Positions 721-3,797 of a DNA stretch of 64,000 nt are shown here, in pieces. The notes beneath the pieces were generated by a model. It was not told where the DNA came from and made no database searches. It was given only the letters and a program-made list of their open reading frames with translations. How positions within the stretch are numbered: the first letter of the stretch is position 1; each line of letters begins with the position of its first letter. The stretch covers positions 1 to 64,000 of IMG/VR virus record IMGVR_UViG_3300046501_000552; one strand, written 5' to 3'. Position numbers and translations under genes: made by a program. Origin of the DNA: an uncultured virus (IMG/VR IMGVR_UViG_3300046501_000552) (lineage: Duplodnaviria > Heunggongvirae > Uroviricota > Caudoviricetes).

Positions 721-1122
721 TTAGATAAGTACGTCGCGAATAAACGGAACGCGAAACTGCGCCTGCTCTTTCAGCCAAGCGCGGGTCTGCCAGTAGTCCT
801 TGTGCCAGATCGAATCAATCTTACAATCGTGATCGACACTCAGCGTAAAGCCAAACTCATCCCCCGTCTCTAACACAAAGACGAGATGATAGCCGAGCTG
901 CCAGCATTGGTCCCACCATTCATCTTGCTGATCAATGATGGCGGGCGTGAAGTACCAGGAGGCGGCTTGCGCGCCAGAGTCAAACGACAGATGCAGTCGC
1001 TGAAGGGCGCGCAGATAACCCATCTGAATCTCGAGCATCATGAAGTTATACGTTGCTTCATCACGCGCATGGTGATGCAAGAATAACTGCAAACGAGTAT
1101 CGAGATTAAGATGACGTGCCAT
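721..1122 (-). CDS. hypothetical protein
   Basis: ORF from ATG at 1122 (MARHLNLDTRL...), tightly packed between neighbours in the same operon. Confidence 0.6.
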   Translation of the reverse strand: MARHLNLDTRLQLFLHHHARDEATYNFMMLEIQMGYLRALQRLHLSFDSGAQAASWYFTPAIIDQQDEWWDQCWQLGYHLVFVLETGDEFGFTLSVDHDCKIDSIWHKDYWQTRAWLKEQAQFRVPFIRDVLI

Positions 1123-1561
1123 CAGGGAGCTCCGGTTTCGGAAAATGATCTTTGGTGATCTCACCCATGATCCGTACGCGCCAACCCATGGATTCAAGAT
1201 GATTCTTCGCGTGCTGGATGAATAAGTGACGGTGGCAAAACACCCCCGCCGGGCAGTAGCACCCATACGCAGCGTATGGGTACACGGAGAGGCGATCCCA
1301 CACTGCTCGATGCAGGTCACGGGACTCCACCATCTTGTCTTCGTAAAGCTCCGTGTAGCTCTGCTCGTTCAGGCGCCCTTCCTTGTACGCCTTCACATTC
1401 TCCCAGTCGGGCGCAAATGCCAGGACCCCGTCCTTCGCAGTAGTATTAATGAGTTTTATTTTTTGCTTGCCACGAGCAGTTTCGATTTCCTCATTCTCGA
1501 TTCGTCGCCATTGGGCTATCTGAATCGTCCAGAGGAAGAACTGGGGAGGTTTCTCTTCCAT
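1106..1561 (-). CDS. DUF488-like protein (N-terminus supplied by the homing endonuclease cassette)
   Basis: FAPDW...YxxLY...AYGCYC..G.FCHRH pattern typical of DUF488-like proteins. Confidence 0.65.
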   Translation of the reverse strand: MEEKPPQFFLWTIQIAQWRRIENEEIETARGKQKIKLINTTAKDGVLAFAPDWENVKAYKEGRLNEQSYTELYEDKMVESRDLHRAVWDRLSVYPYAAYGCYCPAGVFCHRHLFIQHAKNHLESMGWRVRIMGEITKDHFPKPELPDGTSS

Positions 1562-2370
1562 TTAATTCCTTGTAGATCCCTGCGTTAACGCGATTGGTGA
1601 TCGTTGTGGTGGTTAGCCCAAGCTCTTTAGCGGCTAACCCTCGGCTGGCATAGACAACATCGTCTATAACGACTGGTTTAGCGCGATAAAGCATACCCAG
1701 GTGTTTGTTAAGCACAGTCTCAGGAGGATCTTTTCTCCCTAGGGCTACCTCACTCAGTTTCTTTTTGTGTTCTTCACTGAGATGACCACCAAGTTTTGCT
1801 TGTCGCATAACCTCTTTGGCTTCTGGCGAAACTACGTGCGTTCGGCCAGTACTGCTGAGTCTGAATTTTTCGATTGCTTCTGGAGAATGTCTGTAGCCTT
1901 TGTTGTAGCCGGGATTATTCTGATGCTCCTGAAGCAAAGCTTGTCGCAATTTCTCGACATGTTCAGGAGACAGTTTTCTTCCTACTAATTTCTCCTTCAT
2001 TCTTTTTATTGAATCCGGAGATTGGCCTACAGAACAATGCCGCGCATCATCAGACAAGTTCAAGAAAAGCGGACTCCCATAGAACTCATCAATGATAGAT
2101 TGTTCAAGGTCAAACGCCGCTTCTCTGTTCTCAACTTCTACAGACACGAAGTCAAAATTGGGATTACGATTATACGCTCGTTGAAATTTATAATTCGGAT
2201 GCCGCTTATTCCTCAGAGCACTCCTATGTTTACTCTCTCGATAAACATCATCTTTCGTACTACCCGCATAAACCTCGTCAGTCTCGGGATTGTGAAAGAT
2301 GTAGACTTTGTGGTTTTCTTCAGGCATCTCTCATAATCCCTTCTTAATGTCGGAACCCCAGCCCCACCCC
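1425..2370 (-). mobile_element. Free-standing GIY-YIG homing endonuclease cassette carrying a replacement 5' end of its target gene
   Basis: AT-rich block bounded by GGGGT (minus strand) at 2366-2370 and 1425-1429. Duplicated peptides PQFFLWTIQ and IKLI(D/N)TTAK(S/D)GV occur upstream of the insert and within its 3' end. Confidence 0.72.
1491..2327 (-). CDS. GIY-YIG homing endonuclease with NUMOD3-like repeats and C-terminal HTH-like domain
   Basis: KVYIFHN...VYAGST...YRESKH...LEQ...LN nuclease core; repeated (K/G)xxHSPE / HLSEEHKKKLS motifs; VVIDDVVYASRGLAAKELG C-terminal domain; AT-rich codons. Confidence 0.9.
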   Translation of the reverse strand: MPEENHKVYIFHNPETDEVYAGSTKDDVYRESKHRSALRNKRHPNYKFQRAYNRNPNFDFVSVEVENREAAFDLEQSIIDEFYGSPLFLNLSDDARHCSVGQSPDSIKRMKEKLVGRKLSPEHVEKLRQALLQEHQNNPGYNKGYRHSPEAIEKFRLSSTGRTHVVSPEAKEVMRQAKLGGHLSEEHKKKLSEVALGRKDPPETVLNKHLGMLYRAKPVVIDDVVYASRGLAAKELGLTTTTITNRVNAGIYKELNGRETSPVLPLDDSDSPMATNRE

Positions 2371-2673
2371 TGACTTGGCCGTGGTGTCAATCAGCTTGAT
2401 GTGATCCACATCCCGACCCATCAGGTAGGGGTTTTCAGCCCCAGCTGGGTCGGCGGTAGCCGGTGATGGGATCGATGACGTCGTGCTTGACGGTGCCGAA
2501 TCCGAGGGTGGGGTCGACGATGCCGTCGGGGTTGACGTCAACGCGGCGTTCGATGTCGCGCTTCGTGCGCGCAGCAGCCTGTGCTGCCCAAGCTGAATTG
2601 TCCAGAGAAAGAACTGCGGGGTAGGACTTGGGGATGCTGGTGTGTCGGTAGACGAGATGGCGGATGCGTCCAC
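2344..2673 (-). pseudogene. Displaced original 5' part of the DUF488-like gene
   Basis: GGAGG Shine-Dalgarno then GTG start. Encodes PQFFLWTIQLGQ...HIKLIDTTAKSGV, matching the N-terminus of 1106-1561, and stops 5 codons into the insert. Confidence 0.7.
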
Positions 2674-3208
2674 AGGTCGGACCTCCCGTACGGTAGTTAA
2701 GGGATTCCCAGTCCGTGCGCTCGAGCACGTAACCGTTTGCGTCCAGCGACGCTTCGTCGAAGAGGACCGCGCCGACGACCGCGCCTTCGGGGGCCTTCTG
2801 GTTAAAGAGCTGGGCGATGTGGATGCGGCTCGCGAAGCCCATCAGGCTCGGCGTATTACTGCGTTGCACCAGACGGTGGATCGCGCTGTGATGATAGTCG
2901 ACCATGAAGTGGCCGATCTCGTGGTTATGCAGCCCAGCCTGGTAATCGAAGTTGTCTTCCCGATACATCTTCGTGATGTCGTCGATATGACTTCCGTTCA
3001 TGTCCAGCAGATGCGGTGCAACGTGAAACTCTTTACAGGCGCTATACGCCTCTTCTGCGCAATGCAGCACCTGACCCTGCAAGACGTTCTTCAGACGGCT
3101 CAGAGCGTGGTTTAAGAGCGCCGGAGCACCATCCTTGTACACGGGGCGACCCGCTTGGTCCAAAGTGATGATCAACTGCACGTTTTCTTTGCGGTTTTGT
3201 TCTTTCAT
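2435..3208 (-). CDS. hypothetical protein
   Basis: ORF from ATG 3208 (MKEQNRKENVQLII...) with phage-like codon usage; its 3' end overlaps the remnant above. Confidence 0.65.
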   Translation of the reverse strand: MKEQNRKENVQLIITLDQAGRPVYKDGAPALLNHALSRLKNVLQGQVLHCAEEAYSACKEFHVAPHLLDMNGSHIDDITKMYREDNFDYQAGLHNHEIGHFMVDYHHSAIHRLVQRSNTPSLMGFASRIHIAQLFNQKAPEGAVVGAVLFDEASLDANGYVLERTDWESLNYRTGGPTCGRIRHLVYRHTSIPKSYPAVLSLDNSAWAAQAAARTKRDIERRVDVNPDGIVDPTLGFGTVKHDVIDPITGYRRPSWG

Positions 3209-3219
3209 GGTCCCTGCAA

Positions 3220-3270
3220 CAACAAAAAATAAAGATGTCACAAACTCCCAGGGGCCGAAACCCCTGGGAG
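3220..3270 (-). terminator. intrinsic terminator-like hairpin
   Basis: CTCCCAGGGG-ccgaaa-CCCCTGGGAG, followed on the minus strand by TTTGTGAC and a T-rich tract. Confidence 0.7.
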
Positions 3271-3311
3271 CGTTCTCAGCTACTGCCCCCATAAACGGAA
3301 GTGGCGCTCGC

Positions 3312-3797
3312 TTAGTCGCTCAGCGCCGACGCGGCGATGTCCGTCAGGTGATCGCGCACCTTCTTGAATTCGCCACGCGATTGCGACGCGCCGTAGAAGT
3401 CGAGCTTCATCGAGCCCGTGCCGAACTTGGTGGTCGGCTCTTGGCCCGGTGCACGCACTTGCGACGAGCGCTCGAAGACGCCTTCGAACTTCGACTTGCC
3501 GACCGTCGGGAACACAGCTTGCACTTCGTTGACGGTCTTGTGCTTCTTGAAGAAGTCGACGCCGGTTTCGCCGAGTGCCAGGAACGATGCTGCGGCGAAG
3601 CGCGTGTTGTGGTTGTCGATCGCGAGCACCGTGTCGGCGCTCACGCCTTCGGGCAGCAGTTCGACGTACACGCCCTTCAGCTTTTCCGGATCGGCCAAGC
3701 CAGTCTTCGGATCGAGGTGGATGTGCTTCTTGATCTTGTCGGCCAGTTCACGCGTTTCCGGCTTGAAGACGATGGATTCTTTAACAGTCGTGGTCAT
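3312..3797 (-). CDS. hypothetical protein (strong codon bias, probably abundant)
   Basis: 161-aa ORF, AAGGA Shine-Dalgarno, strongly biased codons. Confidence 0.8.
   Translation of the reverse strand: MTTTVKESIVFKPETRELADKIKKHIHLDPKTGLADPEKLKGVYVELLPEGVSADTVLAIDNHNTRFAAASFLALGETGVDFFKKHKTVNEVQAVFPTVGKSKFEGVFERSSQVRAPGQEPTTKFGTGSMKLDFYGASQSRGEFKKVRDHLTDIAASALSD

Follow-up and report, generated by a model that had tools for sequence, protein, structure and literature searches.

A candidate intron-free homing endonuclease cassette with its own replacement gene start in a DUF488-N3 gene of a jumbo phage

Gene content of the locus

The window analysed here, by which we mean the whole stretch of 64,000 nucleotides from an uncultured virus of the Caudoviricetes (positions 1 to 64,000 of IMG/VR record IMGVR_UViG_3300046501_000552), carries three open reading frames on its minus strand at 2673-2344 (109 aa, GTG start), 2327-1491 (278 aa) and 1561-1106 (151 aa). 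The 109-aa and 151-aa frames have two peptide blocks in common, PQFFLWTIQ and IKLI[DN]TTAK[SD]GV, and these ORF coordinates confirm an earlier sequence-only reading which held that the start of a DUF488-like gene occurs twice on this strand. The two PQFFLWTIQ blocks are identical at 28/36 nt, and the linker is S/T/P-rich and 60 aa long in the upstream copy vs 16 aa in the replacement copy. The sequence GGGGT is found at 2370-2366 and again at 1429-1425 and, as had been predicted, in silico deletion of 1425-2365 yields a single open frame, which is 208 codons long. At the left junction the upstream frame runs through six sense codons of the insert, not five as had been counted, before it is ended by TAA at 2346-2344. 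The GC content of the insert is 0.45 vs 0.57 for the window, and GC3 rises from 0.35 in the portion of the replacement N-terminus not shared with the nuclease gene, and 0.41 in that gene, to 0.69 in the DUF488-N3 body, in agreement with the shift from AT-rich to GC-rich codons that had been noted at the junction. The coordinates of the features are collected in Table 1.

Table 1. Features of the DUF488-N3 locus, in minus-strand order
Feature	Coordinates	Strand	Supporting observation
Upstream host gene, no assigned function, 257 aa from ATG 3208 (ORF open from 3292)	2435..3208	-	Gene and overlap shared by empty alleles L001, L005-L009, L089, L119
Shine-Dalgarno-like GGAGG, 8 nt ahead of the native GTG	2682..2686	-	GGAGG also before GTG/TTG in L001, L005-L008
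Native DUF488-N3 5' end, now stranded: WTIQ block 2619-2584, 60-aa linker, IKLIDTTAKS 2400-2371	2366..2673	-	294/303 nt identical to L006, 287/303 to L007
Left GGGGT microhomology, 5 nt (Gly codon + 2 nt)	2366..2370	-	Joint 1424->2366, 5 letters fit either side
Candidate mobile cassette, 941 nt: spacer, nuclease and replacement start	1425..2365	-	Absent from 8 related records; skipped exactly in X3, X4 and X6 contigs; GC 0.45
Spacer, 38 nt: six read-through codons, TAA 2346-2344, purine-rich SD-like stretch before the nuclease ATG	2328..2365	-	
Putative GIY-YIG homing endonuclease, 278 aa	1491..2327	-	Pfam GIY-YIG E 1.8e-5; phrog_314 E 9.6e-32
Shine-Dalgarno-like AAGGA, 5 nt ahead of the new ATG, within the nuclease gene	1567..1571	-	
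44-codon replacement N-terminus: WTIQ block, 16-aa linker and IKLINTTAKD; shares its first 71 nt with the nuclease gene	1430..1561	-	19-21/33 nt identical to 7/7 empty alleles just before the junction
Right GGGGT microhomology	1425..1429	-	
Native DUF488-N3 body with CYC...FCHRH motif	1106..1424	-	269/297 nt identical to L006, with 24 codons changed synonymously and 2 non-synonymously

The stranded DUF488 start and the preceding gene share the final 239 nt of the latter, read in different frames; neither this overlap nor the long linker had been mentioned in the sequence-only reading. The upstream gene matches no Pfam or PHROG family. Throughout the clade formed by the window (2673-2435, minus strand), L001, L005-L009, L089 and L119, DUF488 and the upstream gene share about 240 nt read in different frames, and the overlap encodes a 47-60-aa S/T/P-rich linker that is absent from distant homologs. 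In the record of Burkholderia phage FLC9 (L001), only the last 88 aa of the protein are annotated (gp32) and the conserved start is missed. The small gene that follows DUF488 in the window (1133-720, minus strand) is present in L005 and L007 and absent in L006, L008 and the public run X6 (joint 719->1134), and DUF488 gains an 8-aa tail where this gene is present. A search of 1000-3400 for sigma-70-type promoters, with phage promoters outside its scope, found none.

The 278-aa protein matches the Pfam GIY-YIG family above its cut-off and is laid out as a catalytic domain (aa 6-95), a helical NUMOD3-like middle, an I-TevI-like HTH (aa 216-250) and a 24-aa tail that overlaps the new DUF488 start. 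A profile built from seven homologs of the nuclease matches both the I-TevI catalytic domain (1mk0, E 3e-10) and the I-TevI DNA-binding domain (1i3j, E 0.0037). When the protein is aligned to I-TevI (1mk0/1ln0), Y9, Y20, G22, R30, H34, E75 and N90, which we take to be the catalytic residues of the GIY-YIG domain, are all present, and Y9, G22, R30, H34, E75 and N90 are invariant across the seven homologs. The sequence-only reading had assigned NUMOD3 as well as GIY-YIG to this protein; the GIY-YIG assignment stands, but the NUMOD3 match (16.7 bits vs a Pfam cut-off of 20.4) falls short, as does the match to I-TevI_DNA-bd. P0159, a 56% homolog of the window nuclease which lacks the overlapping tail, has a NUMOD3 match at E 1.4e-9. 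In the predicted structure the catalytic domain is compact, the middle is helical and an HTH lies at the end. Judged by its profile matches and predicted structure, the protein qualifies as an I-TevI-like GIY-YIG homing endonuclease with a modular C-terminal DNA-binding region, and its gene is present or absent at one site among close relatives, as expected where a cognate empty allele exists.

Elsewhere in the window, the minus-strand stretch 36124-33842 contains a GIY-YIG-like domain at aa 95-198 (E 7e-15 with the nuclease profile), which precedes an RNase H gene in the same frame; this stretch is also found in FLC9 (73%), and other jumbo phages match from aa 239 only. A 129-aa ORF at 28450-28061 (minus strand) matches the GIY-YIG part alone of the nuclease profile (E 1.4e-12), has no Pfam match and is possibly a remnant or a stand-alone nuclease.

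The 151-aa protein scores 25.5 bits against DUF488-N3a (cut-off 27, E 1.7e-5; family PF22751), and its close homologs pass the DUF488-N3 (PF22751) cut-off. Homologs occur in 60 phage records, the best being that of FLC9 (62.5%), a phage that has been placed in a genome-based family with Chimalliviridae members (PMC12388082). The window itself belongs to an FLC9-like jumbo phage. Residues C101, C103, C109, H110 and R111 are invariant in 82 DUF488 sequences, and the model of the 151-aa protein has a mean pLDDT of 95.3. In this predicted model the replaced segment supplies strands E8-14 and E36-39 and the nearly invariant T12 and T41; because these core strands and residues come from the replaced part, the DUF488 body is unlikely to work without an N-terminus. 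Judged from its codon changes relative to the empty allele L006 (Table 1), the body is under purifying selection. The model has no Foldseek match at E<=0.001, and its best VIA structure matches, to the RapZ C-terminal domain (Z 6.5, rmsd 3.8, 108 aligned) and to 3g5j (5.1), are below a meaningful level; one paper is said to have placed DUF488 in the rhodanese-phosphatase superfamily. The DUF488-N3 homologs P0018, P0028, P0030 and P0108 are fused to SLOG (YAcAr), NADAR or Nlig-Ia domains, and these fusions hint at a nucleotide or ADP-ribose-related repair or conflict role for DUF488-N3.

Empty and occupied alleles

One uninterrupted long-linker frame with the same upstream overlap is found in FLC9, L005-L009, L089 and L119 (8 records, 7 distinct). 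These relatives, which lack the nuclease, carry one N-terminus and not two, and together with the exact 941-nt DNA joints described below they supply the empty allele that had been anticipated among related jumbo phages. The upstream copy in the window closely resembles the corresponding part of the empty alleles L006 and L007 (Table 1). Just before the Gly codon, the native copy matches the empty alleles at 25-32/33 nt vs 19-21/33 for the replacement copy, a result that was obtained with 7/7 alleles. When the downstream gene is compared with L006, identity is 21/33 nt before the junction and 26-29/30 in the first five blocks after it. By these identities the upstream copy is the native start of the gene and the downstream copy is foreign. 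The replacement had previously been described as recoded; it is indeed divergent, but the term may overstate design, and with a linker 44 aa shorter it could as easily be a piece from a divergent phage. We also considered whether the gene continues, in decayed form, into the 24 nt that follow the left junction, and the resemblance was not significant (p 0.05-0.41, 7 alleles).

Contigs from three of four public runs contain a DNA joint that skips 941 nt, at 1424->2366 in X3 and X6 and of equal size in X4. Given that these joints come from DNA contigs, the empty form exists as DNA. Run X3 also yielded a perfect contig over the whole insert and both junctions at a depth of 15.8, together with the empty form at a depth of 16; carriers and empty targets meet in this one sample. 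An assembly artefact is ruled out by the X3 contig, which spans the insert and both junctions without a difference, and by the IMG/VR record L004, which differs from the window at 1 of 6561 nt. The source sample itself may be represented by X1, X2 and L004, and X1 was not included in the count. The occupied copies (window, L004, X1 and X3) are identical or nearly so. In the window, a 941-nt unit consisting of the GIY-YIG gene and a divergent version of the first 44 host codons occupies the Gly codon of T-x-K-S-G in the DUF488-N3 gene.

The L101 locus and the K-S-G motif

We screened 125 fetched loci for the presence of both genes and obtained two positives, the window's own contig and L101. 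The L101 nuclease is the closest homolog with known context, being 50% identical to that of the window overall and 67% over aa 1-95, and it directly precedes a DUF488 gene that is only 41% identical. The L101 phage is syntenic but distant, with neighbouring proteins that are 29, 36, 41 and 52% identical; set beside the 50% of the nuclease, these values are suggestive, and only suggestive, of the nuclease having passed between the two phages by horizontal transfer. In L101 the nuclease lies between a terminator and a whole DUF488 gene, into which it runs in frame with an SD-like AGGA and an ATG at the seam, and the product bears the NCBI name 'GIY-YIG catalytic domain protein'. Comparison of L101 with its empty relative L102 gives identities of 17-18/30 in three blocks before the Gly codon and 23-25/30 in nine blocks after it, which by sequence comparison places the L101 breakpoint at the same Gly codon as in the window. 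Likewise, the 19 nt before the L101 nuclease ATG match the left half-site of the empty alleles L113 (0/2000 shuffles) and L102 (p 0.003) and end at the Gly codon. The L101 stub (2167-2184) also matches the replacement junction of the window at 14/15 nt, which could be due to chance, to a K-T-G allele or to a history shared by the cassettes.

The second Tyr of the GIY-YIG motif is important, and the L101 nuclease has Asn in its place; with this substitution and the in-frame fusion, the L101 locus may be decayed. The replacement N-termini of the window and L101 have no specific resemblance to each other, indicating that the cassette carries no one fixed N-terminus. Gp150 of Erwinia phage Wellington (L002 3016-3366) and the corresponding protein of phage Kwan are plain DUF488 proteins labelled 'GIY-YIG catalytic domain protein'. 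This label was probably transferred from the L101 fusion protein of the same name, which would explain an annotation artefact in these phages.

Scans of IMG/VR for this nuclease subfamily found two loci, both beside DUF488. Searches for further occupied loci that used the A2 alignment, a degenerate DNA pattern and P0159 as queries returned the two known loci or none; one metagenome scan and one genome scan used the DUF488 alignment as query. A search for longer fusions returned two proteins, neither of them GIY-YIG, and it also missed the known fusion P0160.

The K-S that precedes the Gly codon is kept in 31/34 de-duplicated nuclease-free loci and in 0/2 occupied loci (Fisher p 0.016, a post hoc test on related rows), in a set that left out six distant or partial loci (L114-L118, L132) and did not include L134. 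The occupied alleles alter these residues to K-D in the window and to R-S in L101. Among cluster representatives of unknown genomic context, K-S occurs in 105/152, K-D in 2 and R-S in 1.

Proposed mechanism and relation to known elements

We think it likely that the locus holds an intron-free, self-neutralising homing cassette, with cleavage and immunity as we infer them from the sequence. During co-infection, the nuclease would cut the empty allele at or near the T-x-K-S-G motif, and repair that uses the native 5' end as its left arm and the gene body as its right arm would copy in exactly the 941-nt cassette, as in intron homing. The native start of the recipient would thereby become a stub, and the start carried by the cassette would complete the gene. 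The left junction would then consist of the native half of the site and the spacer, and the right junction of the foreign half (S->D) and the native half; since neither would be a full site, the carrier would be protected. The replacement N-terminus would have arrived with the nuclease from an unsampled divergent phage and not have been recoded in place. Such an origin is probable because of the low GC3 of the replacement and its shorter linker, which is nearer the 8-9 aa of distant homologs. Its composition and divergence are foreign-like, and its nearest blocks belong to the host's own clade: a search for a donor with the same compact N-terminus found none, the nearest 23-aa blocks being those of FLC9-clade alleles (17-19/23) and L092 (17/23).

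The stub would persist because it encodes the end of the overlapping upstream gene, and it would be renewed at each homing event; at L101, where the site follows a terminator, it would have shrunk to about 19 nt. The stop of the window stub lies 17 nt before the nuclease ATG, which falls within the distance over which T4 nucleases are thought to re-initiate (PMC2988022). Re-initiation coupled to the stub, and an operator role for the half-site, are speculation by analogy. A broader proposal, possible but in our view doubtful, is that a distinct and active class of phage homing elements replaces splicing by a DNA-level fix. Members of such a class would target a conserved catalytic-region motif and escape through S->D (here) or K->R (L101) in the N-terminus that they carry, and the left half-site would serve both as an I-TevI-like operator and as short homology for jumps between jumbo phages whose genes are 30-50% alike, swapping N-termini.

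The same anatomy could also be the product of a one-off accident of ordinary intronless homing, an explanation that differs from a homing cassette in history and present activity and that we consider rather unlikely. In this case a free-standing nuclease upstream of an immune DUF488 in a divergent donor would have been captured by repair that relied on homology with the body alone and closed the opposite side by an illegitimate joint; the duplication would be a scar, and the cassette would have ceased to spread as a unit. Homing of this one-sided type, with joints at microhomologies, has been described for T4 (PMC2988022), L101 resembles the layout of such a donor in having almost no stub between the terminator and the nuclease, and the near identity of the occupied copies means that repeated spread is not evident. 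However, the half-site stub of L101 ends at the same Gly codon, which fits the same type of insertion having occurred twice, and the window has an intact nuclease and two arms that match empty alleles occurring alongside it, so that the homing cassette we favour appears equipped to home.

It is highly improbable that the 5' end was instead duplicated locally around a nuclease that targets another site, with the downstream copy drifting and taking over without any role in cleavage resistance. T4 free-standing nucleases do cleave at distances of hundreds to thousands of bp from the gene that encodes them (PMC2988022), and in the PQFFLWTIQ block the highest identity of the new copy is to its own subclade (28/36 vs 23-27/36). 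Before the junction, however, the new copy (19-21/33) lies beyond any sampled clade member when set against the native copy (25-32/33); it also shares the low GC3 of the nuclease, and the same nuclease subfamily is found at the same codon in a distant phage. It is scarcely credible that the insert is removed or skipped in RNA or protein, as a group I intron, an intein or a gene-60-type bypass between matched GGG codons with the second start incidental: although precise deletion restores the frame and matched Gly codons flank the insert, the three Rfam matches are at chance level (E 2.3-7.1) and include no intron, exon-U and intron-G cannot both be had wherever the boundary is placed in the 5-nt microhomology, non-coding DNA amounts to just the 38-nt spacer, whose fold is no better than shuffles (z +1.39), the nuclease is a separate ORF out of frame with the host gene and preceded by the stop at 2346-2344, and the second start with its own SD would be left unexplained by any of the three. 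A ribosome bypass fails on anatomy, a 941-nt hop far exceeding the 50 nt spanned in T4 gene 60, and the earlier view that neither an intron nor an intein is present is upheld.

If the homing cassette reading is true, it adds to introns, inteins, intergenic sites and split genes another means by which a homing nuclease can occupy its target at no cost, and chimeric phage proteins would arise as a by-product. The locus makes a strong test case: both alleles, empty and occupied, are present in the same sample, the breakpoint is known to within 5 nt, and the second natural insertion, at L101, points to the same few codons as recognition determinant. Passages of a T4 review describe intergenic nucleases and gene-splitting insertions and contain no 'duplicat' wording (PMC2988022), and those of Barth et al. 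(PMC10448857), the CB7 paper (PMC7344957) and a review of nucleus-forming phages (PMC12908238) describe free-standing, intron, intein and split forms only. In literature searches that covered few subscription journals, no description of a gene-end-replacing layout in phages was found.

The T4 seg genes resemble the present element in being intron-free and GIY-YIG, in their I-TevI-like modules, in the conversion of a neighbouring target to the donor allele and in their overlap with adjacent ORFs (PMC2988022). Those genes occupy intergenic positions and their products cleave hundreds to thousands of bp away, whereas relative to the empty alleles the insert described here lies inside a gene, its presumed target, part of which is duplicated. 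Likewise, mobE in Aeh1 nrdA, mobA in T4 gene 60/39 and seg43 of phage 25 are nucleases within a coding region without splicing (PMC2988022), but such splits give two complementary polypeptides, whereas in the window the upstream piece is redundant beside a complete downstream gene. I-TevI in the T4 td intron and the intron endonuclease of PhiPA3 share with our nuclease the domain layout, the insertion at a conserved motif and a host gene that is kept functional (PMC2988022; PMC12908238), and the I-TevI operator, a homing-site-like sequence upstream of its ORF, may be paralleled by the half-site stubs. Unlike these introns, the cassette has no ribozyme, and its neutrality would come from a replacement start at the DNA level.

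The endonuclease ORF of Allomyces macrogynus atp6 is reportedly an element that carries a duplicated foreign gene end. In the mitochondria of Tremella fuciformis, 'introns with N-terminal duplication' have been described and foreign N-terminal replacement has been proposed (PMC7315562; cited in PMC8393795). As in these fungal mitochondrial elements, a mobile element would here have brought in an exogenous homolog of a host-gene end, with the native end displaced and the gene made chimeric. Unlike the fungal elements, this one resides in a bacteriophage, has no intron and places an SD and start of its own within the nuclease gene; in addition, the stranded piece is dual-coding, and two distant hosts have the insertion at the same codon. 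The observation is real and well supported, and the organellar precedent tempers the surprise.
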